A DNA stretch of 64,000 nt from Eledone cirrhosa (taxonomy: Eukaryota): NCBI GenBank assembly GCA_964016885.1, contig OZ024740.1, forward strand, positions 182,528,001-182,592,000, given 5' to 3'. Position numbers and translations under genes: made by a program. Positions 4,291 through 59,329 of the stretch are shown here, in pieces; position 1 is the first letter of the stretch, and each line of letters opens with the position of its first letter. The notes below the pieces were generated by a model. It was not told where the DNA came from and ran no database searches. It saw only the letters and a program-made list of their open reading frames with translations.

Positions 4291-7200
4291 AGGACTGCGA
4301 GCACTCCTCTTTGTTTCGACCGTGGAAGGCTAACATAACCCCATCGCCCCCCGCCCACCACCGCCCCCAACCCCCAAACGCAATCCAAAACTTCAGAGTT
4401 GGTACCATAAATGTAGGCACCTTAAAGGGTCGCGCTAACGAGGTTGTAGAAATGCTTGAACATAAGGAGGTCGATGTTTGTTGTATTCAAGAGACCAGGT
4501 GGAGGGGTGGGTCTGCTAGATTCATTGAGGGTAAAAAACGATGTTATAAGCTTTTCTGGGTGGGAAATGACGATGGGCTGGGTGGAGTAGGTATGATGGT
4601 AGCAGAAAAGTGTGCAGATAAGATAATAGACGTAAATAGAGTGAACGACAGAATAATTAAAATAAGACTTGTCCTCAATAGAACTACGGTGATAGTAATA
4701 TCTGCGTACGCACCCCAATCCGGACTGCCCGGCACTATAAAAGACAGATTCTATGAGACACTGATGCTCACTACCTCCCAAATAACCGACAGTGACTATA
4801 TCATTATCGCAGGCGACCTAAATGGTCACGTTGGACAACATTGTGACGGCTACGACGAAATCCATGGAGGCTATGGGTTTGGTACTAGAAATGAGGAAGG
4901 CTCCAGAATCCTGGAATTCTGTGACGCAAATAACCTAACTATCTGTAACACTAACTTCAAAAAACGTGACAATCACCTGATCACCTATAGATCCGGGGAA
5001 CACACAAGCCAGGTAGATTATATCCTTACCAGAAGACGTGACAGAGTGTCTGTTGTAAACACTAAATCCCTCCCCCATGAAGAATGCACCTCGCAACATA
5101 GACTGATAATTAGCGACCTCATAGTCAGGAGGAGACGTACTCGACAGCAGAAGAGGATTATCCTCAGGAGAAAAATATGGAAGCTAAAGGACCCCACAGC
5201 CAGAAATAAATTTCAAAGCATATTACTTGATGCTTTCGACAGTAAGGAAGAGCATTTAGAGTCGGACAATATAGAGGGACAGTGGGAATTTCTGAAAGCA
5301 AACTGGCTGATGGCGACAGACGAAGTCTATGGCTGGAGCAGGCCTGTAGGCAGGAGGAGAGTAACATGGTGGTTGAACAGTAGGGTGGAGGGGTCAATTA
5401 AGGCCAAAAAGCAGGCTTGGAAAGTATGGCGGGATGGGGGAAGTAGAGAAGAATATCAAGTGGCCAGGAGGGAAGCTAGGAGACAAGTGTACTTTGCAAG
5501 AAGGGAAGCAGAGGAAAGAAAGTTCAAGCATGTTCTACAACGCGAGGACCAAAAACGTGAGGTGTTCAGGATTGCTAGGCAATGTGTCAAGGAAAACCGT
5601 GATATTGTCGGGGAGAAGTGTGTACTTAATGATGACGGCGTACTTGCCATCACCGACGCTGATAAGAAGGTAGCTTGGAAGTGTCACTATGAAAGGCTAC
5701 TAAATAAGGAGAATAAATGGGAGAAAGACAGTCTCCCCCACATCGACCCAATAGAGGGACCAGCAGTGTTAGTCGAGGGTAGTATAATGAGTAAGGCAAT
5801 CAAGGATATGAAAACGGGTAAGGCGGCTGGGCCTTCGGAAATAGTTGCTGAGATGCTGAAGGCATCTGACTCGGTGGGACACACCTTGGTCACCCGGATA
5901 GTTAACCAAGTCGTACAGAATGGGGTTGTTCCGAAGGACTGGCATAGCAGCATCATCGTTAACTGTTATAAGGGTAAAGGAGATGCCCTAGATAGGAGTA
6001 ACTATAGAGGCATTAAACTAATCGACCAGGTCATGAAGGTCACGGAAAAAGTAATAGCGCAACTAATCAGAGAGAGAATTGACCTAGATGAAGTTCGGGT
6101 TTGTGTCAGGCAAAAGTACCACAGACGCTCTTTTCATTGTACGTCAACTACAGGAGAAGAACCTAGCTAAAGGTAAACCCCTCTACTTAGCTTTTGTCGA
6201 CTTGGAGAAAGCCTTCGACAGAGTCCCCCGTTCCATTATCTGGTGGGCCCTTAGAAAACTATGTGTCGACGAATGGCTTGTGAGAGCTATACAAGCCATG
6301 TATAAAGAAACAGTCAGCAAGGTTAGAATTAACAACGAATATAGTGAAGAGTTTAGCGTAAAAGTTGGCGTCCATCAGGGCTCTGTTCTCAGCCCCCTAC
6401 TATTTATTATTGCCCTTCAGGCTATAACAGAGGAGTTCAAGACTGGCTGCCCATGGGAACTCCTATACGCAGAAGACCTGACACTCATAGCTGAATCAAT
6501 GGCCGAGCTAGAGAAGAAATTCCAAACATGGAAGCACGGCCTAGAATCAAAAGGCCTTAAAATTAACCTGGCTAAGACTAAAGTTCTAGTTTGTAGGAAA
6601 GAAAATAAGGCGGCGGTCCCTTCCGGGAAATGGCCATGCTCAGTGTGTAGGAAAGGTGTAGGTAGAAACTCCATTTTATGTCCCAAATGCAAAGTGTGGG
6701 TGCATAAAAGATGTAGTGGGATCACAGGTAAGCTAACTAAGAACATAGATTTTACATGTGGGCGGTGCTCTGGTGCAATAAGTAGCAGCGAGTGCCCACA
6801 AAATACTAATTCTTTCAATTGCCCAGAGGGCTCTATAGAAATAGTGGACAGCTTCCGTTACTTGGGTGACAAAATCAGCAGTGGGGGAGGGTGCTCCGAA
6901 AGTACAGTAGCTAGAGTCAGAACTGGATGGAAAAAGTTCAGAGAGCTTATACCACTATTAGCCACTAAAGGGTTCTCCCTAAAAATGAAAGGCAGGTTGT
7001 ATGATGCCTGCATACGAACAGCAATGTTGCATGGCAGTGAGACCTGGGCATTGTGCGCAGAGGATATACGCAGACTAGAGAGGAACGAAGCTTGCATGCT
7101 CCGCTGGATGTGTAATAGTAATATACGTGAACGGCAAAGCATAAACGAACTAAGGAAAAAATTAGAAATAAGAGGGATCAGATGTTGTTTACTCGAGAGA

Positions 7201-7805
7201 AGGCTACGTTGGTACGGACACGTGATGCGCATGAAAGTCGATAGCTGTATAACAAAGTACAGGGCAATAAAGATAGACGGTAGCCACGGAATAGGCAGAC
7301 CTAGAAAATCCTGGGACGAGCTGATAAACTCCGACCTCACACACTTACACCTCTCCAAGACAATGTCACTGGACCGAGACCTTTGGCGGTACTCAGTAAT
7401 AGAGAAGACCCGCCTTACCTAAATACATAGTAAAACCTACTACAGCCAGTAGGCATCTCTAACAATATACACCCCCGTCCCACCACCCACACCCCATCCA
7501 CACCACCCCTCCTATGTAAAGTTATGTTGGTGCCACAACATCCAGGCCGAAACAAATGAGATCGTGTAGGTGTCACGACAAAAAAACACACAGTCCACGC
7601 TGTAACGTGTAGGCAACACGGTAAAAACCTCCCAGTCCCACACTGTAAATGTGGTTGGTGTTAGGAAGGGCATCCAACTGTAGAAAACCTGCCAGACAGT
7701 CCTATGCGAGCAAGACAATCACTCTTGCCTCAAGTGGGAATACCCCCGTCCAAACCCATGCAAGCGTGGAACACGGACGTTAAACGTTGATGATGATGAT
7801 GATGA
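4291..7805 (+). mobile_element. Near-full-length RTE-clade LINE (family RTE-1) with (GAT)n tail
   Basis: APE (GTINVGTL, CIQETRW, SAYAPQ, GDLNGHVG, VDYI, QHR) + RT (AFVDLEKAFDRVP, GVHQGSVLSPLLF, YAED, FRYLG) + RLRWYGHVMRM; about 380-bp 3'UTR ending AAACGTTGATGATGAT. Confidence 0.97.
4311..7422 (+). pseudogene. RTE endonuclease-reverse transcriptase ORF, frameshifted near 6090 and YADD>YAED
   Basis: ORFs 4311-6170 and 6088-7422 join at DLDE/(Q)FGF through a small deletion; sister copy at 47 kb retains YADD. Confidence 0.93.
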
Positions 7806-12698: not shown

Positions 12699-14758
12699 GA
12701 GGAGGTTATAGTTCACTTGAAGCATTGTGTAATGAGGTATAAACGTTTGAATATGTATAATAAAGCCAAAACAATGCAGGTATGGACATAGAAAAAAGAA
12801 TGCAATTGCAAAAGATATTGTTGACAATTCGTCTTTTACCTTAGATTTATTTAAATGTCCTTAATTTTCGAGATAATATCTCTTCTTCAGAGGGAAATAA
12901 AGGTCTCAAACCAGCGTTCTAAATATCTTGCCAAGCCATGCTGACAGGAAATAGTATAGAGTATCTGTTCTATCTCTAATGTCAAAGAGTTAAAATTAGG
13001 TGGATAAAGAGTAGTCTCCCTTTAAAAGGGGTTTGTTTAGGGGTTTTTTTTTTGTATATACATGCCTGTTTAAGTGTGTGGGAGAATGCATGAAGGTGTA
13101 AGTATGTGAGTGTGTGTGTGTGAGTGTGAGAAGATAAGTCTATTCGTAAATGTGGGGGATAGGTGTTATCTGGTGTCAGAACTGGTTTTGTGTATGTATG
13201 TGTGAGAGAGAATAAGTGGAGGTGTAAGCGTGTGTGGGGTGTAAATATGGGGCTAGAAGCCCTATCAGGTTATAAATTGGGTGTTGAGTTCTAGTCTATT
13301 ATTGATTGGTGGTTGTGTTTTATCTATAATTAGTGCTTCCTTAATTCTAAGATTGCCGAGGTTTCTTTCCTTAGTTTCTATCCTAACTGTTATGGTTTTG
13401 TCGGTGTTTTTGCATTTAACTAGGTGTTTCTTAAATGAGGAAGCGTTAGTATTGAGGTGTTCTTTTATTCTTATGTGGAGTGGTCTGGTGGTGCTACCTA
13501 CGTAGAAGTTGTTGCATTTGTCACACTCTAGTCTGTATACGACGTAAGCCTGGTGGCATAGGTTTGTGTCGTTGATGGGGCAGTTGGCTAGTCTGCAGCA
13601 GTTGTCATGTCTGGTGGAGTGTCTTTTGGTTAGCTGTCCGCGTAGAGAAGGACCTGAGTGGGCCAGTTGGATATCTAGTCCCTCTCGTCTGATGGCTCTG
13701 CGGATGGCTGTTGTTGTTTCTTCACTGAAGTGTGGGAGCTTCAGGAAGCAAGTGTTAGTGCCTCGGGTGTGGTGTCCTCTGTTCTTTCTGGCACGGTTTG
13801 TGGTGGATGTCTTGTATCCGTTCAGTTTGAGTACTTCCAGGAAATGTGTGGTGTGTGTGTCTCGGTCTCTAGCGTCGGTGCTTTTGTTCCGGATACGTGC
13901 CAGTTCGTTCCTTATGTATCCGAACTTGGAACCGAGTGGGAGGGCCGATCTGAAATGTACGAACAGGTCCCTGCTGGCGGCTTTTTTTATAGAAGCAGGT
14001 GTGGATGTTGCCTTCCTCTGTTATCCTGAGTTGGAAGTCCAGTAGGGATAGAGATCCGCAGTCATCGGGGTGTTCCATGCTGAACTTTATACTGGCGTCC
14101 ATGCTGGAGAATGTTGTGTATATTTTATCTGCCTCCTCACGGGATGATGTAAGGATGAGTATGTCATCTACATATCGGGTGAAGAAGGCTTGGGAATGGC
14201 AGGTGTTGAGGGCTCGGCATTCTAGCTGGTTCATGTAGGTGATGGCCAGCAGGCCCGATAGGCTGGATCCCATGGGTAATCCTGTTGTCTGTCTGTATGT
14301 GTGGTGGTGGAAGGTGAAGTACGTGTTGTCTACTGTGAAGGACAAAAGCTGGTGTATGTCCGTCGGGTGGAGGCCGTAGCAGTGGATGTCCTCTGCGACC
14401 ACGCAGTCCGTCAATAAATCGACAGCTGGATGAGCGGGGACTGTAGTGTAGAGGGAGACAACGTCGAGGCTAAAAGCGTATTTATTTAGTTTCAGTTGTT
14501 CTGGCTGGAGTTGGTGTAGTCTACGTATAACTTCGTCGGAGCTACTGACATGCCCGGGAAAGGTGGAGAGTAGAGGCTTGAGGACCTGGGAGAGGAGCCA
14601 GGAAATTTTGTATAGGGGTCCTTCTATGCTAGAGACGATGGGTCTTATTTGCGTCTTAGTACTATTCTTGTGGGTCTTGATGAGGTGGTAGAAAGTGGGC
14701 AGTCTGCTATTTCTAGTGGTGTAGTTGAGCTTAACTTTATTTGGGAGTTGTCTTCTAC
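12697..14758 (-). mobile_element. Penelope-like element family P1, 5'-truncated: RT + GIY-YIG EN + 3' pLTR, flanked by (TA)n on both sides
   Basis: PTFYHLIKTHK, IRPIVS, SLDVVSLYT, GLPMGSSLS, RYVDDI, LSLLDF; C-terminal VVYRLECDKC..FYVGSTTRPLHIRIKEH; +1 frameshift in A-run near 13985. Confidence 0.95.
12858..12894 (-). ncRNA. Minimal HHR motif in the P1 pLTR
   Basis: CCT-CTGAAGA-A-GAGAT-ATT-ATCTC-GAAA-AT-TA-AGG; stem I only 3 bp. Confidence 0.55.
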
Positions 14759-14794
14759 ATATATATATACACATATATTTATATATATATATAC

Positions 14795-15000
14795 ATTTAT
14801 TAAAATAACAGATTAAAGTTTAAGCAAAGAATCGCTGCTTTCACCCTTAACGGGATCTTCTGAAACTAAAAAATCAATCTGTGAACGCAGAAGGAAATAT
14901 TTCGAAAAACGTTGCAACCGAAGGAAAACAGGAAGATGATACTTTGGTTCGTGAAGACGTTCCCTGGCAATGAACAGAAAACAGCGAAGATAATAAATAC
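14795..15000 (-). mobile_element. pLTR-like remnant of another PLE family with degenerate HHR core
   Basis: Minus strand CAGAAGA-TCCC-GTTAA-GGGT-GAAAGCAGCGATTCTTTGCT...; same sequence at 53070-53135 (+). Confidence 0.55.
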
Positions 15001-16284: not shown

Positions 16285-18328
16285 CAGGGGTCACCAAACT
16301 ACGGCCCGCGGGCCGGATCAGGCCCGCGACGTCAGTTCAACAGGTCCGCCGACGGTGCTTGCATTTTCGTGATAAAACGGATGGAACACGAGATGTTTCT
16401 AATTCAATGTCTTTTTCATTTTCAGATCCCGTTTTTTTTCACCCTTTATTATGGCTACTAAGAAAAGAAAAGTGGACGCCGAGTGTCGCGTTTTAGATGA
16501 ATGGGGGGTGAATACTCCTTTGTGGAAACAAAGGACCAGAAAGCTAGTTGCGTGGTATGCAGCGAAAGTATTGCCGTTTTGAAAGAGTACATTCTTCGGC
16601 GTCACTATGAAACAAAACATCTATCAACATATTCAAAGTTTTCTGGAAAGTTACGCTCTGAGAAATATGAGTCCATGAAACGTGGTTTAGAAACTCAAAG
16701 AAATCTCTTCACGAGAAAGTTTGCTGAAAATGAATCTGTCACTCGTACAAGTTACAAAATAGTGCATAAGTTGGCAGAGTGAGGAAAACCGTTTACTGAT
16801 GGCAACTTCATCAAAGAGTGTATAATGGAAGCAGCAAATAACTTGTGTGTCCTGAGAAAGCCGATTTGTTTGGAAGTATCAGCCTTTCGGCAATTTCAGT
16901 TGTGCGGAGAACAGAAGAACTTGGAGAGAACATAGTGCTACAGATACGCGAGAAAGCGAGGAACTTGTGGTATTCTCTGGCGCAAGATGAGTCTACTGAT
17001 CTCTCGAGTACATCACAACTTCTTGTGTTCATTCGTCGTGTCAATTTGGACTTTCAGATAACGGAAGAGTTGGCATCCATTTGCTGCATGCATGGAACAA
17101 CAACTGGAAAAGACATTTTCATGGAAGTGCAGAAAACTTTGCTGTGAACTTTATTCGGGGACATGCACTCAATCACCGTCAGTTCCAGGCTTTTCTTGAA
17201 GAAATTGATTCTGATTTCTGTGACTTGCCTTATCACACAGCAGTGAGGTGGCTCAGCTGCGGTAAAGGCCTGTTTCGTTTTTACACGAAATTATTTTTAA
17301 ACGAAATAGATGTTTTTCTCACTGAAAAAGATAGAGCTGATCCACAGCTGTCAGATCCTACCTGGCTGTCAAAGTTGACATTTTTGGTCGACATCACATC
17401 CCACATGAATGAACTGAACTTGAAACTTCAGGGAAAGGATAACCTCGTCTGTGATCTCTACAAAATTATCAAAGGATTTCGGAGAAAGCTGTCATTGTTT
17501 GAAGCACAACTGGAAGAAGAAAACTTCTCTCATTTTCACTGTTTCAAAGAGTTTTGCGCTACAATTGCTGAAGATGTCAACCTCGATTTTCCTGAAAAGA
17601 TTATTTGTGACTTGAAGAAGCCTTTTTTAGAGAGATTTTCAGATCTCGACAGAATTGAGAGTGACATTCTTCTGTTCCAGAATCCGTTTGATTGTAACCT
17701 TGATGATGTGCCAGTTGAACTGCAGTTGGAGCTCATTGATTTGCAAGCAAATGACTTGTTGAAAGAGAAGCATAGAGAAGGAAATCTTGTTGAATTTTAC
17801 CGCTTCTTACCTGATGTTGAGTTTCCACAATTGAAGAAATTTGCCGCTGGTATGGCATCATTGTTTGGAAGAACTTATGTCTGTGAGCAAACATTTTCAA
17901 AAATGAAGTATGCGAAGTCAACACATCGAACGAGATTGACTGATGAACATTTGAAAGCAATTCTCTTGATTGGATGCCAAAATTCCAAACCAAACATTGA
18001 TGATATCTTGAAAGCCAAACGTCAGTTTCACAAATATCATTAAGCTTTTTTGCTGTTTAGTTTGTAAGATTCGGATATGTGCACACTAGGTCTGATGTAA
18101 CTATATTTTTGCTAACGTTGCCTTCTTTGATAACTTTTTAGTAAATAAATATGTTGGTTGTCTTTGTTTTCTGTGCTTTGCTTGCCCATGATTAACACGG
18201 AATGCTAAACGTAGTGTTTCGTCTTTTTTCCCAGAGCTTTCGTTCTGGCTTGCAAGTATTGAACAGAATGATTATGCGGCCCGCGCTCGTCATTCTTTCA
18301 GTTATCCGGCCCACTGTGAAAAAAGATC
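16285..18328 (+). mobile_element. hAT (Charlie/SPIN, GTF2IRD2-like) DNA transposon, internally deleted, 3' TIR missing
   Basis: 5' TIR CAGGGGTCACCAAACT followed by CGGCCCGCG subterminal repeats; CGGCCC repeats again at 18277-18315; preceded by NNNTANNN 8-mer ATATAGAT. Confidence 0.92.
16451..18043 (+). pseudogene. hAT transposase pseudogene
   Basis: MATKKRKVD NLS, BED finger CVVC...RRHYETKH, DESTD, VRWLS, TYVCEQTFSKMK..RTRLTDEHL; frameshifts and stops; TDGA and CxxH block absent at about 17145. Confidence 0.92.
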
Positions 18329-19009: not shown

Positions 19010-19579
19010 CACAAGAAACATTATGAAATATCTTGTGACATGAGCTGGATATCTAATATCATAATCACAAAACATTTCAGCTTTTCCTTGTATTTCCTTC
19101 TTACAAAAGAAATGTATTTCTTAACAGGTTTTGGATACATTAAAGTGATGTTGGAACCCATTACAATACACTATAAGATTGAATATACAAACATTTAGTT
19201 CTATGAATTATGTCAACTTTCATAAATCATTTCCAATCCTTGAAAGGAAATTATAGACATAAACAAAAAAAATCACACCTCTTCGCTCTATTTGTTAGTA
19301 TTTCCAAAGATGTTGGATAATCAAATTCAGTTTTCACAAATTTCTGTATTCTCATACAGAACATATACAACAATATATGGGTTGAGCCATATCAAAATAT
19401 ATTTATCACTCCTTTCACAGAACTATATTCCTCTGCATCTCTTTAAAATTGTGAACACCCCTATGTGTTCTACTCTATCTACTATAATGGTAATAATTGT
19501 ATGAAGCATTTATAGCACTAATTGACACCATACAGTTAGTTTTCCTATGTTTTCAATGTTCCCTTCAAACAATCATGAA

Positions 19580-19695
19580 TGTGCATGGCTTAGTGGCTAC
19601 AGATCTGAATTTGCAATCAAGAGGCTGTGTGTTTGATTCCTGGATTGGGTGATGTGTTAGGTCCTTGTGCAACACACATTATTTCACATTGCTTT
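19580..19695 (+). mobile_element. Decayed tRNA-SINE head (family C); similar copy at 21878-21990
   Basis: TGGCTTAGTGG A box, GTTTGATTCC B box, then TGTGTT..GTCCTTG..CAA. Confidence 0.55.
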
Positions 19696-20574
19696 TTCTG
19701 ATAGTATCAGCAATGGAAAGACCAATGGAAACATTGTTTCCTTGGTCCTATTTGGCAGGTACCACAAGAAATTGGAATGTGACAAGTGCAGCCAATTCAA
19801 CATTGGTAGCACTATTTGACCCTTACACCACCAAATTAAAGAACACATCAACATAAACTCTTCTTCTTTCCACATACACATCATGAAATGTTGAGACAGG
19901 GAGAGAAAAATAACCACCACATCTTGGCTACCAAGTGCAGTATAGGCACACAACATTTTCAAAGTTTCTCTCTGAGAACCCCTCCCCCATGAATTCCCCT
20001 TCATAATGGCTCGTAAATCCGAAAATATTAGTGATTATTAAAAAAACGTCTTATAATCCTCTCTCTTTTACTTCACTGTGTTCTTTTTTCATCTAATTTG
20101 TTATTACATTGGCATTTTTATCAAACACACATTGTCGGGCTTCCAATAATCAAATTTATTTCGTATTTGTATCTGAATCTCATATACCATAATTCTTTAA
20201 GCAAACTACCACAACTTTTATATATATAGGGAAACCTTTTTTTGGTGAATTAATGAAATAAAGAACAAGCACGTACTTGGGTTGATTTCATCATCTACTA
20301 TCCTCTCTCACAAATTTGTCAATCAGTGCCAATATAAGAAATCAGTGTTACTTTAAATGATGTACAATACCTCTTATGTGCTATAGAGAGAATACTTCAA
20401 TAAGAATTTAATTTATGTAAATAACAATGAAATTGAAGTTTTTGCATATAAATTATTGAATTGAAAATAAAGCTAATCAGCATTTTGTCACAAACAGTTA
20501 TCATGCAAACTGCAACTGCATAGTTAACTTTAATTGCAGTATATATATATATATATATACATACATATATATAC

Positions 20575-20759
20575 GTTATTCCAGGTTGAATCGGAGGTAA
20601 CCACAGTAAGTAAGGTACTCAATACATTGCAGAGTATAAAAGTTTTAATATAGATGAGATTCTACAGGACTAGAACTGTTTCATTCTTTAGAAATCATCA
20701 GGAATCTGATTCCTGATGATTTCTAAAGAATGAAACAGTTCTAGTCCTGTAGAATCTCA

Positions 20760-20762
<3 letters not shown>
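20575..20762. mobile_element. PLE-type pLTR end folded into a perfect 55-bp-arm palindrome, with an HHR core on both strands
   Basis: 20652-20706 and 20708-20762 are exact reverse complements; arm contains CTGATGA-T-TTC-TAAA-GAA-T-GAAAC-AGTTCTA-GTC; related fragment at 53169-53192. Confidence 0.75.
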
Positions 20763-20794
<32 letters not shown>

Positions 20795-20799
20795 GTATG

Positions 20800-20831
<32 letters not shown>

Positions 20832-22724
20832 CTGCAATTAAAGTTAACTATACAGTTGCAGTTTGCATGATAACTGTATATATATATATATATATATATA
20901 TACATGGACAGGTTGGTATATTGCCACAAGGGCTAACTGCTTTCCGTGACCACTGTGTAGCCATTATTTTAGTAACCAGTGATTATGTTTTGTATTACAG
21001 TTTGGAATGTGTCTTCTGGTTCATGCCAGAAACTGAAATAATATGCTTTAACTCAAATTTTAATTTTCAGTTGGAATTGATGAAGAGTAGAACAATGCCT
21101 AAATGTTTCAAATCATGTTCACATATTATTCTTTTAAAACTGAACTTCATTGAATTAACTTATAATTGAGGATGTTACCTTTCCATTTTTTCCTATGTGC
21201 TTGTACTTCACGTGAATGTTTTTCCATTGCAATTCTTTGATTTTTAGTGAACACCATAATTCAGAAATACAAACAAGACATTATTATGTCAGACTTTGAG
21301 ACATTGTGTGTTAACAATAGTTTCTTACACAGGCATGTGGTCTCAAATTAGAGAGAAGGGTATAATTGATTTTAGCGATGCTAATAATATTTGAATGGTA
21401 TTTTATTTTATTGATCTTGAAAGGCAATGTTGATCTCAGTAGGATTTAAAACTCAGGATGTGAAGAGATAAAAATAGATACCACAAGGAATTATATCCAA
21501 TGCTGGAAGAATTTCACCAATTTACCAAGATGTCAAATTTAATAATAGTCTGCAGAAACAATAAAAGAAGGCAGGGCAAACTCTGTACCCTCAGCTGGAC
21601 AAAGTATCTACTGTCTTTCCAATGGACAAGATGGCAAAACTGTTATCATGCTTGAGCAGCAATTCTACCTTACAGGGCTCCTTCTTCAGACATGATGCCA
21701 TCTTCTTGATTTTGTGGAGGAATATAGAGTCTGAAAATTGAGGATGTTGGAGCTCTCAATTGAATAAAACTATTTGTGATATCTATTAGATTTGTTGGAT
21801 TACCCTTTACAAACTCTAGTATTTGTTTAATTATATAATAAGGTTATTTTTCTTAACTTAATAAATATTTATGAAACTGCATGGTTCAGTGGTTACATAA
21901 TTGGATTAACAAATGCGAGGTTGCAAGTTGGATTCCTGGAGCAGGTGATGTGTTATGTCTTTGAGTAAGGGATTTTATTTCCTATTGCTCCTTCAAGCAG
22001 GAGTTGTGATCGGTAGATAGTATCAACAATAGAAAGTCCAATGGAAATATTTTCTTTGGTCCAATTTGACGAGTTCTACCGATTCAGTTAGTGAGTAAGG
22101 TCTGACATCATATCAATCAGCCTCCAGTCAAAATTAATATTCAAAATATTTGATTATTTTTTTTTCAAAGATTATTATTACACTACACTGTTAATGCACT
22201 AATGTAGTACTGTTGATTGGAGTGGTTTGTCAATCAATATATAAATATTTAATTGAATTTTTATATTATTTCTTTGCAAATGATCTAATATATGTATATA
22301 TGTTTGGTCCTGTAACTTCTGAGGGCATCGTAGGTGCATTTCACTGACATATGAGAAAGAAGATAAATAGTGTTTCAACTGACAATATAATAGGGTAAAA
22401 GTTAAAGATAGAATGAGAGATAAAAGGAGAAATAAGATAGACAATAGTAAGGAGAGAAAATAAGGGGAAACATTTTGGAGGGAAAGCATGTGTGTTTAGC
22501 CAACCACAAGACATGTCATCTAACACTAACAATTCTGCTCTGGACCGGTGCTTTATTTTATTAATGCTGAAAGCATGAATCTCAAAGTGGGTTTTAGTGG
22601 ATTTTCAACCCAGAGTGCAAAGTGTTGGAACAAATACCACAAAGTATTTAATCTTTACATATCATATAATCTTACAACTCATGAAATTTCCATCTGGAAT
22701 GCATTGGATCATACATCTGTTTGA

Positions 22725-29305: not shown

Positions 29306-29664
29306 ATTTGTTTACAATACAAGGTTTTATCTAGATATAGCTGATTTATGAATGTAATAGTAGAGATATGCTAGTATAATAAATAAACACCTTTATTTAT
29401 CTTTAACAATTACAATCTTGCTTAATCCATTCAAATCTTCATCTACTAGTTTTCAAATATCACTTTTAATTGACTGAATGCTTTATAAGCAGGGAAAAAA
29501 TATCAACAAAATGTTTAAATATTTGTTCCAAAAATATGTAAATGTTTCACTCTACAATATATAGAAATGTACTTCAATGAATATTGAAAATGTTCCAATA
29601 ACTATTGGAATATGAATATAAATTATTTAAAGTCTAAACAAATACAGTTTTGAAATGTTTCATA

Positions 29665-31133
29665 GTCATCCTTACATCATCCCGTGAGGAGGCAGATAAA
29701 ATATACACAACATTCTCCAGCATGGACGCCAGTATAAAGTTCAGCATGGACGCCAGTATAAAGTTCAGCATGGAACACCCCGATGACTGCGGATCTCTAT
29801 CCCTACTGGACTTCCAACTCAGGGTAACAGAGGAAGGCAACATCCACACCCGCTTCTATAAAAAAGCCGCCAGCAGGGACCTGTTCATACATTTCAGATC
29901 GGCCCTCCCACTTGGTTCCAAGTTCGGATACATAAGGAACGAACTGGCACGTATCCGGAACAAAAGCACCGACGCTAGAGACCGAGACACACACACCACA
30001 CATTTCCTGGAAGTACTCAAACTGAACGGATACACAACATCAACCACAAACCGTGCCAGAAAGAACAGAGGACACCACACCCGAGGCACTAACACTTGCT
30101 TCCTGAAGCTCCCACACTTCAGTGGCGAAACAACAACAGCCATCCGCAGAGCTATCAGACGAGAGGGACTAGATATCCAACTGGCCCACTCAGGTCCTTC
30201 TCTACGCGGACAGCTAACCAAAAGACACTCCACCAGACATGACAACTGCTGCAGGCTAGCCAACTGCCTCATAAACGACACAGACCTATGCCACCAGGCT
30301 TACGTCGTATACAAACTAGAGTGTGACAAATGCAGCAACTTCTACGTAGGTAGCACCACCAGACCACTCCACATAAGAATAAAAGAACACCTCAATACTA
30401 ACGCTTCCTCATTTAAGAAACACCTAGTTAAATGCTAAAACACCGACAAAAGCATAACAGTTAGGATAGAAACTAAGGAAAGAAACCTCGGCAATCTTAG
30501 AATTAAGGAAGCACTAATTATAGACAAAACACAACCACCAATCAATAATAGACTAGAACTCAACACAACTTGATAGAGCTTCTAGCCCCACACACGCACA
30601 CACACACGCACGCACACACACACACACACGCTTACACCACCACTTATTCTCTCTCTCACACACACACACACAAAGACCAGTTCTAACACGAGATAACATC
30701 TATCCCCTACATTTACGTATAGACATATCTTCTCACACTCACACACACACACTCACATACTTACACCTTCATGCATTCTCCGACACACTTAAACAGGCAT
30801 GTACAAAAAAAAACCTTTTAAAGGGAGACTACTCTTTATCCACCTAACCTTAACTCTTTGACATTAGAGATAGAACAGATACTCTATACCATTTCCTGTC
30901 AGCATGACTTGGCAAGCTATTTAGAACACTGGTTTAACCGCCTTACTTCCCTCCGAAGAAGAGATATTATCTCAAAAATTAAGGACATTTAAATAAATCT
31001 AAGGTAAAAGACTAATTGTCAACAATATCTTTTGCATTTGCATTCTATATCCATACCTGCATTGTTTTGGCTTTATTATACATATACAAACGTTTATACC
31101 TCATTACACAATGCTTCAAGTGAACTATAACCT

Positions 31134-45933: not shown

Positions 45934-47521
45934 TCATCATCATCATCATCGTTTAACGTCCCTGTTCCACGCTTGCATGGGTTTGGACTGGGGTTTTCCC
46001 ACTTGAGGCAAGAGTGGTTGTCTTGCTCGCATAGGACTGTCTGGCGGGTTTTCTACAGCTGGATGCCCTTCCTAACACCAACCACATTTACAATGTGGGA
46101 CTGGGAGGTTTTTACCGTGTTGCCTACACGGTCACATTACAGCGTGGACTGTGTGTTTTTTTTTGTCGTGACACCTACACGATCTCATTTGTTTCGGCCT
46201 GGATGTTGTGGCACCAACATAACTTTGCATTGAAGGGGGCGGTGTGGATGGGGTGTGACAGGGGCGTATTTTGATAGAGATGCCTACTGACTAGTAGGTT
46301 TTACTTTGTATTTAGGTAAGGCAGGTCTTCTCTGTTACTGAGTACCGCCAAAAGTCTCGGTCCAATGACATTGTCTTGGAGAGGTGTAAGTGTGTGAGGT
46401 CGGAATTTATCAGGTCGTCCCAGGTTTTTCTGGGTCTGCCTACTCCGTGGCTACCGTCTATCTTTATTGCCCTGCACTTTGTTATACAGCTGTCATCTTT
46501 CATGCGCATCACGTGACCATACCAACGTAGCCTTCTCTCGAGTAAACAACATCTGATCCCTCTTATTTCTAATTTTTTCCTTAGTTCGTTTATGCTTAGC
46601 CGTTCACGTATATTACTATTACACATCCAGTGGAGCATGCAAGCTTCGTTCCTCTCTAGTCTGCGTATATCCTCTGCACACAATGCCCAGGTCTCACTGC
46701 CATGCAACATTGCTGTTCGTATGCAGGCATCATACATCCTGCCTTTCATTTTTAGGGAGAACCCTTTGGCGGCTAATAGTGGTATAAGCTCTCTGAACTT
46801 TTTCCATCCAGTTCTGACTCTAGCTACTGTACTTTCAGAGCACCCTCCCCCACTGCTGATTTTGTCACCCAGGTAACGGAATCTGTCCACTATTTCTATA
46901 GAACCCTCTGCGCAATTGAAAGAGTTAGTATTTTGTGGGCACTTGCTGCTACTTATTGCACCAGAACACCGCCCACATGTAAAATCTGTGTTCTTAGTTA
47001 GCTTACCTGTGATCCCACTACATCTTTTATGCACCTATACTTTGCATTTGGGACATAAAATGGAGTTTCTACCTACGCCTTTCCTACACACTGAGCATGG
47101 CCATTTCCTGGAGAGGACCGGCGCCTTATTTTCTTTCCTACAAACTAGAACTTTAGTCTTAGCCAGGTAAATTTTAAGGCCTTTTGATTCTAGGCCGTGC
47201 TTCCATGTTTGGAATTTCTTCTCTAGCTCGGCCATTGATTCAGCTATGAGCGTTAGATCATCTGCGTATAGGAGTTCCCATGGGCAGCCGGTCTTGAACT
47301 CCTCTGTTATAGCCTGAAGGGCAATAATAAATAGTAGAGGGCTAAGAACAGAGCCCTGATGGACACCAACTTTTACGCTAAACTCTTCACTATATTCGTT
47401 GTTAATTCTAACCTTGCTGACTGTTTCTTTATACATGGCTTGTATGGCTCTCACAAGCCATTCGTCAACACCTAGTTTTCTAAGAGCCCACCAGATAATG
47501 GAACGGGGGACTCTGTCGAAG
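45934..47521 (-). mobile_element. 5'-truncated RTE-1 copy
   Basis: Near-identical to 6215-7805; YADD intact; stop in the PHD (W>*). Confidence 0.95.
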
Positions 47522-47674
47522 TCTTTATATATATATAATTCATTTATATATGTATATAATGTATTTATATATGTATATAATGTATTTATATATGTATATA
47601 ATGTATTTATATGTATATATAATGTATTTATATATATATATATATATAAAATGTATTTATATATATTTATGATG

Positions 47675-48616
47675 TCATCATCATCATCATCATCATCGTT
47701 TAACGTCCGTGTTCCATGCTTGCATGGGTTTGGACGGGAGTTTTCCCACTTGAGGCAAGAGTGGTTGTCTTGCTCGCATAGGACTGTCTGGCGGGTTTTC
47801 TACAGTTGGATGCCCTTCCTAACACCAACCACATTTACAGTGTGGGGCTGGGAGGTTTTTACCGTGTTGCCTACACGGCCACATTACAGCGTGGACTGTC
47901 TGGCAGGTTTTCTACAGCTGGATGCCCTTCCTAACACCAACCACATTTACAGTGTGGGACTGGGACGTTTTTACCGTGTTGCCTACACGGTCACATTACA
48001 GCGTGGACTGTGTGTTTTTTTTGTCATGACACCTACACGATCTCATTTGTTTCGGTCTGGATTTTGTGGCACCTACATAACTTTACATTGAAAGGGGCGG
48101 TGTGGATGGGGTGGGGGGTGGGGCGTGGAGTGTATTTTGTTAGAGATGCCTACTGACTGTAGTAGGTTTTTCTTTGTATTTAGGTAACGCGGGTCTTCTC
48201 TATTACTGAGTACCGCCAAAGCTCTCGGTCCAGTGACATTGTCTTGGAGAGGTGTAAGTGTGTGAGGTCGGAATTTATCAGCTCGTCCCAGGTTTTTCTG
48301 GGTCTGCCTACTCCGTGGCTACCATCTATCTTTATTGCCCTGCACTTTTTTATACAGCTGTCGTCTTTCATGCGCATCACGTGACCATACCAACGTAGCC
48401 TTCTCTCGAGTAAACAACATCTGATCCCTCTTATTTCTAATTTTTTCCTTAGTTCATTTATGCTTTGCCGTTCGCGTATATTACTATTACACATCCAGCG
48501 GAGCATGCAAGCTTCGTTCCTCTCTAGTCTGCGTATATCCTCTGCACACAATGCCCAGGTCTCACTGCCATGCAACATTGCTGTTCGTATGCAGGCATCA
48601 TACAACCTGCCTTTCA
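47675..48616 (-). mobile_element. 5'-truncated RTE-1 copy with a tandem duplication of about 110 bp in the 3'UTR
   Basis: GGACTGTCTGGC...CACATTACAGCGTGGACTGT present twice (about 47781-48010). Confidence 0.93.
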
Positions 48617-48639: not shown

Positions 48640-49424
48640 TAGGAGGTGTGTTTTATTGTAGCACAATAAAGCAATGTAAATATCAGATAAGTAGCACTCA
48701 ACAGTTTATAGGACTGGAGTATAACAAATGTAAAATCAAAAGATGGTTAAAAGAGTTCCATGTATTTTATTACGCGCATTTCAAAAACATAAGTTCATAA
48801 TTCATTTAACCTTATCTTCATTCACCTTATCTTCTTAATATATTTTATTTTAATAATACATTTTAATAAATTCCTTTTAGCACATCTTATTAAACCCTTC
48901 AATATATAAACCTTAAATAAATAGTATTCTTAATTCCTTTTTCTTTAATCATAAGCATCACCATTCATAAACCTCATTAACTTTTAATTTCTAAATTTGT
49001 TTAAATTATGTATTATCTTACAACGTTTTTTTTTATTTTACTCTGTGAGACATTGTTTCTCAGTATTAAAGGTTATATCTCTCTCTCACTCATTTTCTTC
49101 TCCTCCTCATCCTTCCTTCTTATACTCCTCCTACGTCATTCTTTCCTTATTATTATTTTTTCTTTTTCTTCTATCTCTATGTTTTCTTCCTCTTCCTTAC
49201 CTTTTCTTTCCCACTTCATTTCCTTTTTTCCAATCTCATATATTCGTCTAATTTTATTTTTCATATGTTGATTTGACACTTCACTGCTCGCAAGTGTTTT
49301 TTAAGCTTCATATCATGTCCCCCTATTTTATCTGACGAGAACGCAAATATCATCCCATGATGATATTTGTTTTTGAAATGCGCATAATAAAATACATGGA
49401 ACTCTTTTAACCATCTTTTGATTT

Positions 49425-49428
<4 letters not shown>
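48640..49428. mobile_element. Non-coding PLE-type pLTR pair in divergent orientation (48640-48788 minus, 48790-49428 plus)
   Basis: About 60-bp inverted repeat 48729-48788 / 49368-49427; HHR in the plus copy; (TA)n both sides. Confidence 0.75.
49324..49394 (+). ncRNA. Minimal type I hammerhead ribozyme (best conserved in window)
   Basis: TATTTTAT-CTGACGA-[GAACGCAAATATCATC-CCAT-GATGATATTTGTTTTT]-GAAA-TGCGCA-TA-ATAAAATA: 8-bp stem I, long stem II, palindromic stem III ATGCGCAT, AUA cleavage triplet. Confidence 0.8.
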
Positions 49429-49471
<43 letters not shown>

Positions 49472-57359: not shown

Positions 57360-58397
57360 TTAAATATAATGAAATAAGAATATAAAGCTTATATCTGTCA
57401 GGCATTTCAATGAAATAAGATTTGCTATTTTACAAGAATTACAAATATCAGCTACAGATAAGAATAATTCTAAATAGCTATATTTTAATGAGATAGCAAA
57501 ACAGTTACTTCAAAATTATGATGGCATTCTATCTGTACAAACCTGCATTCCTATATTTCAAGCAGAACCTCTTATTTGCAAAAACCATTCAATTAATAGC
57601 AGAAGCAAAGAAGAAGAATACAACAAATATAAATTGGTTCAGAAAAGAAATATGAATTGATTTCCAAATTTTCTTTATCTAGAATATGATAGATTTTGTC
57701 TTAACATTCAATTTACACGAAATGAGACATAGCTGAAGACACTTTCTTAATATAAATACTTTATTTATTAGAAAAGTTAAAATGTCTACTGTCCATTTAA
57801 TCTCACCCAAATTTCCTGAGCAGTTGAAGAATAGCAAATATTTCCTATTTGTAGGTTAATAGCGGAAATGATATAAAACAAAACTATTTGGCATCACCCT
57901 ACAATATTCTCCAGACATCAATATATCATCATTGGACAGAGAATATATCTCAGATGTTTTAAGATAGTTTACATACTTATGTTGATATAACATTTTAACT
58001 GAATAATTCATGAATGCAAATGTGTTTTAAACTAAACTGCTTTATTATATTTACTGTAAATTTTACCAAAGTGTTCTCCTATATTTATCTGGTTAAAAAT
58101 CCTGTATGACTAAAACTGACATACTGTTAAGCTATCAATAGAAATTGAAAGACAGATATCAAATGTTATGTTTGATGTTGCTGTGTCTAAGAAACTCCTG
58201 TGTTTAGAGTAATAATAAAATATTACTTAAGTAAAATATTTTTATCATCTGATCAATATACATTATAAAAAATGTTGATAATCTTGATAATCTTGATATG
58301 ATAGATCCATTACCTAAGTAATAAACTCATAATCAAATATCTTTTTTATCTATCCAGAGAAATACATTGCTGGTTATTTAGCCTCTAGTTAAAATTG

Positions 58398-58445
<48 letters not shown>

Positions 58446-58447
<2 letters not shown>

Positions 58448-58957
58448 GGAAAAATTTGAACAGGGACAAAACAGAGAGGCAGTACAACGAATGTTTATTA
58501 ATTTCACGCTCTGGAAAGTGGGGTGTTGGTGGGGGACGACGTTTCGGGCATAAGCCCTTCCTCAGGTGAGAAGTGTGTGGGAACAGAGTTCAAAGGGTGT
58601 GTAGGGGAGTGGTGGAGAGACATATAGCAAAAGGAAACGGTGCGAATGAAAAAATAAAAAATAAAGATAAAAATAAAAATAAAGCATGATCAAAATACAA
58701 GGAATGAGATAAATTTAAATATAAAGGCATGATAAAAATAAACTGATATTAAAAGGGAGGTAAAACAGGTGGTGGAAGGGTGTGGTAAGGCACCAGATGG
58801 ACCATAACGCACCAGAGTACTCACTACTTAGGGTAGTAGAGTGGGTAATAGGAAAAAGTATGACCCCGCGGCAGAGCTCAAGCCGTTTCAATGGCTATAT
58901 CAGTCCAGAAATAGCCGTCGAAATGGCTTGAGCTCTGCCGTCGGGGTCATACTTTTT

Positions 58958-58962
<5 letters not shown>
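58446..58962 (-). mobile_element. PLE-type pLTR remnant with HHR and terminal fold-back hairpin
   Basis: HHR at 58535-58568; hairpin arms 58848-58898 / 58911-58962; (TA)n both sides. Confidence 0.75.
58535..58568 (-). ncRNA. Minimal HHR motif
   Basis: AC-CTGAGGA-A-GGGC-TTAT-GCCC-GAAACGTC-GT; intact core, palindromic ACGT stem III, very short stem I. Confidence 0.65.
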
Positions 58963-59002
<40 letters not shown>

Positions 59003-59329
59003 TTTCAATTTTAACTAGAGGCTATATATATATATATATATAAGATCATAAGTCTTCCAGCCATGACCATCGTCTTCTTTTAGCCAAAATTTATTGAGTA
59101 TTAGATTCTCCAACACCTCTTTCCTTTTATAAGATAGTAGGTTATCATTTGAGCGACATTTGACTGCAATTTCTATTGTTTTAGATATATTTCTTAGAAT
59201 TAGATAAGGTGAGTAACAAAAGGATTATGATTGTTCATGCTATTAACCTTGCCTATAGAGGTAAATAAGTTTGTTAATTATTTAGATTTACATATATTTT
59301 GATAATCTAAGAAGGGATTAAAAATGTGA

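Follow-up and report, generated by a model that had tools for sequence, protein, structure and literature searches.

A Penelope-like insertion within an inverted flank duplication in Eledone cirrhosa: possible stacking of TA snap-back repair and twin-primed integration

We analysed a 64,000-nucleotide stretch of the Eledone cirrhosa genome (the window), in which a Penelope-like element (PLE) lies between a target flank and an inverted copy of that same flank. In our preferred reading, to which we give about an even chance, the locus is a stack of two ordinary events: snap-back repair at a TA repeat and, afterwards, a standard twin-primed PLE insertion. We prefer this reading because every junction would then be of a kind that is frequent in the E. 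cirrhosa genome. Both layers of the locus, the hairpin and the inverted flank copy, have known counterparts, and the lone window locus reveals no new pathway. The signs of twin priming across the element family and the density of TA snap-back palindromes matter more than the window locus alone.

The locus consists, in order, of flank A, (TA)n, the element, its hairpin, (CT)7/(TA)n, the reverse complement of flank A, (TA)n and flank B. Flank A (20494-20540, + strand) is the single-copy original of the duplication and continues leftward into unique DNA. It is followed by the (TA)n tract that was the insertion target (20540-20573, with a 6-nt interruption at 20560-20565) and by a 5'-truncated copy of the PLE family that we call F1 (20574-20706, - strand), which has the 'long' 3' end of the family with a 66-77-nt tail that is absent from the other arm. 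A putative hammerhead-like motif (CUGAUGA ... GAAAC core, 5-6-bp stem I) is predicted at 20658-20706 (- strand). Beyond a 1-nt hairpin spacer (20707), an inverted 55-bp arm (20708-20762, + strand) terminates at the F1 'short' 3' end and is complementary at 55 of 55 bases to 20652-20706. The segment 20763-20831 holds (CT)7 (20763-20776) and then a (TA)n tract (20776-20831) with a mirrored interruption; the inverted copy of flank A (20831-20877, - strand) overlaps the next TA tract by 1 nt, and this last tract, (TA)13 (20877-20902), forms the return junction to flank B. Flank A and the reverse complement of 20831-20877 are identical at 46 of 47 bases, a match expected by chance at one offset with a probability of about 3e-23, and with the TA tracts included the flank inverted repeat extends over 74 nt at 96%. 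The order of parts, the inverted flank and the perfect 55-bp hairpin reported in the first-pass annotation are all found in the assembly as described.

The interruption is mirrored in both inner TA tracts of the window locus, which indicates that the inverted copy takes in part of the tract; it is present on both sides in 1 of 226 F1 hairpin units. An exact 25-mer of flank A has only two sites in the 3.0-Gb genome of the species, the original and the inverted copy, and a 160-bp flank A query matches only itself and the inverted copy, a count that is a lower bound as very common words were skipped. Public-run contigs X3 and X4 match the outer flanks of the window locus at 20000-20531 (0 differences) and 20915-21500 (2 differences), with the repeats between the outer flanks skipped in the matching, and no public-run contig bridges the structure. 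Runs X1 and X2 yielded family sequence only, and X4-X7, compared with 20790-21000, leave the copy uncovered, repeats being skipped here as well. At the level of the assembly, the structure is confirmed.

The first-pass annotation had described the element as the 3' end of a PLE, and this identification is upheld: F1 is a high-copy, TA-targeting family with an ORF that combines RT with a GIY-YIG at the C-terminus. The 132-bp piece at 20575-20706 (- strand) has many near-identical genomic copies. Exact-pattern counts over the genome were 162 for one long-end variant, 3,147 for the mid end and 220 for the short end followed by (CT)n, and a microsatellite adjoins 586 of the 598 F1 3' ends examined. 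Upstream of the F1 region, three loci (L224, L044, L243) have a same-strand ORF with RT motifs and a C-terminal IVY...YIG, R, H, E, N domain, a cysteine cluster precedes the GIY-YIG in three (L037, L079, L161), and the Atlas neighbours of the F1 ORF carry RVT_1 and GIY-YIG (score 0.93-0.94). Pfam returned no match for a 486-aa piece of the ORF, the RT part being without RVT_1; BLASTP of the ORF against the other PLE RT of the window and a PDB sequence search gave no match, and no intact full-length copy was seen among the fetched loci. Judged by its sequence, F1 is assigned to the Penelope-like (EN+) elements, with a predicted single ORF of RT plus GIY-YIG that is linked to the repeat.

Neptune PLEs, as presented in the available part of PMC8557442, and F1 both have a C-terminal GIY-YIG-like domain after a cysteine finger or cluster, and the microsatellite bias of Neptune is matched by the TA targeting of F1. 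By domain layout and microsatellite targeting F1 thus appears Neptune-like, and this clade is a lead only. Rfam found no hammerhead among 44 matches to the F1 repeat, which were only hairpin-shaped miRNA models below thresholds, and the MFE fold of the hammerhead-like region has a shape other than the hammerhead; PLE hammerhead variants are described in the available part of PMC4209133. In the F1 RNA, the ORF and the hammerhead region are apparently separated by a long stretch rich in TA/TG (L224:1-1530, L037:2850-3200).

The hairpin of the window locus is the normal form of F1, namely a 5' truncation with an inverted 5' copy and a one-sided tail. A non-random sample of 339 stretches (1,904,672 bases), picked around family copies, holds 364 F1 units, of which 226 are head-to-head. 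The 31-bp hairpin junction of the window itself occurs at 194 genomic places, and three other F1 hairpin junctions at 451, 263 and 48. A long end is paired with a short or mid end in 221 of the 226 hairpins and the short-short pair is rare (2/226), and half of the non-hairpin units also end at the short or mid site (69/138). In 152 units the two arms agree in subfamily variant; in 16 they differ, by sporadic-looking point changes with no subfamily swap (0 cases). This suggests a single template RNA; it does not separate twin priming from fold-back. Loop sizes of 0-2 nt were found in 76 of 206 units with the innermost pair counted, and we kept these counts out of the evidence because loop type had played a part in the choice of loci and the innermost pair was taken. 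We rejected the notion that a (CT)n run closing the arm is a mark of flank duplications: among the first 30 of the 220 exact copies that end in this way, one, the window itself, has a window-type copy. In the fetched loci, head-to-head units of this kind are also built by several additional hammerhead-like families.

An ORF arm stands directly head-to-head with a 3' end in 9 of the 15 loci that hold the ORF family (L018, L037, L039, L040, L058, L079, L159, L230 and L274). Fold-back of an element's own cDNA should not be able to make head-to-head arms from different parts of the RNA, whereas priming on two strands could. Together with the strict pairing of long and short ends, these non-overlapping units point to twin priming on one RNA. 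The inverted ORF arms end inside the TA/TG-rich stretch, a hint that the RNA paired with the TA target to allow priming. The 1-nt spacer at the window would fit two cDNA ends joined by one base. In L1 twin priming, as Ostertag and Kazazian are said to have described it in 2001, one RNA is also used by the second target strand, which primes at an internal site, and the inverted 5' arm is joined by microhomology. The nine F1 loci with non-overlapping arms resemble this process; unlike in L1, both arms of most F1 units cover the same 55-66 nt and form a perfect hairpin, and no TSD is readable inside TA.

The special fold-back by which the first-pass annotation had explained the hairpin is not supported: among F1 copies picked by their long 3' end alone 62 of 102 are head-to-head, nine loci have arms from different RNA parts, a 1-nt spacer would be hard to close in cis, and inverted 5'-truncated PLE copies are already described in the available part of PMC8557442, which states the formation of inverted PLE units as an open question. 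In vitro work on a PLE protein showed cleavage and extension of both strands and RT starts at two internal sites, which define the tail; a dimer is the model for this protein (PMC11167929). The PLE pLTR units of PMC8557442 (available part) and PMC11167929 share with F1 the 5'-truncated copies, the inverted 5'-truncated copy directly at the 5' end, the one-ended tail, the (TA)n targets, a hammerhead-like repeat motif and alternative RT start sites. The F1 tail measures 66-77 nt as against 30-40 in the PLEs described there, and the F1 start sites adjoin TA-like bases. Inverted target-flank copies, as at the window locus, go unmentioned in the available parts of these two papers. No report that links twin priming to Penelope and GIY-YIG turned up in a literature search whose scope did not extend to supplements or to the older and subscription literature on how Penelope is built.

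The structure that the first-pass annotation had described as its case 1 recurs at L050, L057, L154, L195 and a second site in the window (case 2). The cases were curated by eye from 125 + 12 + 8 candidate rows and 40 further rows. Flank copies at F1 are rare (6/364 units): F1 is the sole insert between flank and copy at the window, L050 (42-47 bp, identical), L057 (54/60) and L154 (215/218), and it is accompanied by further inserts inside the flank duplication at L167 and L231. Other repeats take this place at L195, at the SINE-like L093 and at case 2, where another hammerhead-bearing repeat family (58375-59028, - strand) lies between flank and inverted copy. Case 2 has a putative hammerhead core at 58541-58565 (- strand), its own 5' hairpin, a 22-23-bp flank and the same polarity as case 1. 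Inserts of either polarity, later ones, sit inside the flank duplications of L167, L231 and L093. A further 111 loci, selected because they hold mid-end or hairpin-junction copies, contained no case of the window type.

Thirteen cases contain only microsatellite between flank and copy (L036, L063, L074, L107, L137, L141, L146, L150, L153, L182, L189, L194 and L256). These element-free flank copies, found at 13 of 2,989 TA tracts, measure from 23 to at least 296 bp at 92-100% identity, and in 8 of the 13 no F1 end touches them; an F1 copy touches L141, L146 and L189 from outside and a related end lies beside L150. The copied piece is repeat-derived in L150 and L153, and L137 is a weak case. The outer junction has the same form in element-bearing and element-free cases, the copy ending in 1-3 A/T bases in register with TA (exceptions: L189, L256, L141, L194 and L146), and mirrored tract interruptions also occur in the element-free L063, L107 and L182. 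The palindrome at L036:935-1870 has no element and a TA tract as its centre, its arms measuring at least 296 bp and matching at 99.7%, and at L146:3896-4250 a whole F1 copy and 43 bp of flank are mirrored about a (TA)22 tract. At L189:4040-4313 a 70-bp exact inverted copy of the 5' flank is joined to the element with no TA between. Microsatellite-like candidate matches were left out of the event count. We also dropped repeat-family ends that match other loci equally or better (L022, L041, L056, L094 and others), L205, which looked like a real TIR pair, and weak or old candidates (L053, L076, L081, the second site of L107, L147, L202, L322 and L324).

We compared the frequency of flank copies at F1 units and at element-free TA tracts. 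With single inserts the rate is 3/363 F1 units (window left out) against 13/2,989 tracts (p=0.41), and with multi-insert cases counted it is 5/363 against 13/2,989 (p=0.038). Single-copy flanks in a 1.61-Mb subset give 3/150 against 9/1,210 (p=0.14), and tracts with single-copy DNA on both sides give 5/363 F1 units against 9/267 (odds ratio 0.4, p=0.11). Over all comparisons the odds ratio is 0.4-3.2 and p is 0.04-0.41; the rates are of one order and the outcome depends on the denominator. The first-pass annotation had considered that such structures may be no commoner at PLEs than at other TA tracts, and at the low power available this roughly holds: three comparisons out of four are non-significant, and the fourth has p=0.038. 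Its proposal of a PLE-specific pathway gains no clear support, the same flank copy with the same junction being found in the 13 element-free cases. Since the mirror copy also forms at TA repeats without an element, it likely reflects general break repair rather than a special insertion pathway.

On the other hand, the template switching through self-complementary (TA)n that the annotation had invoked is the best explanation of the inverted flank copy. After a break in the TA repeat, the 3' (TA)n end next to flank A would pair with itself, be extended across the remaining tract and on over 47 bases of flank A, unwind, and anneal to the other end by 1 base plus TA, which would give X-(TA)-rc(X)-(TA)-Y. 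This product is found 13 times without an element inside, the form that snap-back synthesis predicts. The GIY-YIG nuclease of the element would then cut the central TA tract on both strands. One of them would prime cDNA at the 'long' site and its partner at the 'short' site, which lies 77 nt upstream, and the 3' ends of both cDNAs would join with a 1-nt overlap. That snap-back came before insertion is itself something we infer.

Snap-back synthesis at breaks and foldback inversions are described in the available parts of PMC5728401 and PMC11724301, respectively, and TA repeats as break hotspots repaired by MMEJ in that of PMC13645644. As at the window, the SD-MMEJ and yeast foldback events of the first two involve self-priming at a break-side inverted repeat, limited synthesis and rejoining with 0-5 bases of microhomology, and TA/AT is a used primer repeat. 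The inserts seen here appear to fit the snap-back/foldback type: an inverted copy of break-side DNA, a local inverted repeat and a short rejoining microhomology. Unlike the SD-MMEJ and yeast events, the window-type copies are fixed in a natural genome, have a long (TA)n primer and range from 23 to ~300 bp; most yeast foldback inversions span 5-34 bp and some reach >150 (PMC11724301, available part). A literature search found no inverted target-flank copies at PLEs (older and subscription papers and supplements outside its scope, hence weak evidence of absence), and none at TA microsatellites in a natural genome (the same weak scope, no older or subscription papers).

The polarity of the inserts bears on whether insertion and flank copy are coupled. 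In all five single asymmetric inserts (window, case 2, L050, L057 and L195) the 3' or long end of the element faces the original flank (two-sided p=0.0625); once L167 and L231 are added, the count is 5/7 (p=0.45). The 5/5 polarity keeps a single-event path alive, and the two processes may be coupled. L154 is a full palindrome of the element and ~216 bp of flank, with the rare short-short pair and a 3-nt loop; L154 and L189 fit one-event products, and L189 is the best single sign that flank snap-back is possible during an insertion. Divergence is about the same in flank copies as in hairpin arms (46/47 and 55/55 at the window), so no age gap is visible.

The single-event path of the first-pass annotation, which we hold to be possible without being likely, would have a flank-A-primed cDNA turn back, recopy the element end to the short site, slip onto its own TA tract with the 77-nt tail skipped, copy 47 bases of flank A and join via TA. 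This path predicts the polarity of the five asymmetric inserts, accounts for the mirrored tract interruption, has a continuous version in L154 with its 3-nt loop, and agrees with both arms always having the same subfamily variant (152 concordant, 16 sporadic discordant). However, a 1-nt spacer closed by one C-G pair is probably sterically unfavourable for a cis fold-back, the arm ends coincide with the end sites of uninverted copies (69/138 at short or mid), the nine non-overlapping head-to-head units need a second primer, and the same flank copy forms without any element. Another one-event route appears improbable: after a break made by the nuclease of the element, the flank-B end would copy 47 bases of flank A and the TA tract with 1-2 bases of overlap, and only afterwards prime the second cDNA at the short site. 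Twin priming and polarity are retained by this route, and at L189 a target end extended into an inverted flank copy meets the short-site sequence of the element without TA; yet the end would have to invade unbroken DNA at a distance of 47 bases from the break, aided by next to no homology, and at L189 the copied flank is the one on that same side, not the opposite flank.

An assembly or chimeric-read artefact at the palindrome is very improbable: no read or contig bridges the structure, and palindromes and TA tracts are hard to assemble, but the window copy differs at 1 of 47 bases, the tracts differ too, L057 differs by up to 10%, later insertions lie inside L167, L231 and L093, and the junction type is uniform. 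That flank A and its copy represent the TIRs of a MITE which had picked up a PLE piece, a possibility raised by the first-pass annotation, is for practical purposes ruled out. The inverted 47-bp ends between TA do resemble a TA-targeting MITE, and L205 looked like such a pair; flank A, however, is single-copy in the 3.0-Gb genome and thus not a MITE end, neither TA nor a boundary lies on its outer side, and the sequence duplicated is local and differs from case to case. More doubtful than not is the view that the PLE machinery left all mirror copies as scars, whether an element is present or not; in this view GIY-YIG would cut (TA)n and the RT would extend self-primed TA ends and jump between target strands. 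In the biased sample, the palindrome density is ~7 per Mb. If it were true, successful and aborted insertions would leave thousands of 25-300-bp palindromes genome-wide, PLEs would be a source of local inverted duplications, and F1 would be a natural record of twin-primed PLE integration.

F1 offers a countable in vivo test of how PLE inverted units form, and the many fixed inverted flank duplications at TA repeats of this genome would be a natural footprint of snap-back repair making new palindromes.

Finally, the window and the fetched loci hold further repeats. TA tracts adjoin a repeat-family end on at least one side in 1,870 of 2,461 cases over all fetched loci. Pieces of a different PLE, with RVT_1 and GIY-YIG by Pfam, lie at 13265-14819 (- strand) and 29638-30438 (+ strand) of the window, and putative LINE-like EN/RT ORF pieces and a putative transposase-like ORF, labelled by their motifs, occupy 4293-7422, 46312-47799 and 17000-18043. 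A 132-bp direct pair (19567-19698 and 21863-21994, 70%) is an old dispersed repeat, unconnected with the inverted flank copy. At 48727-49430, a 63-bp inverted pair (97%) consists of the ends of another TA-abutting repeat family, arranged head-to-head.
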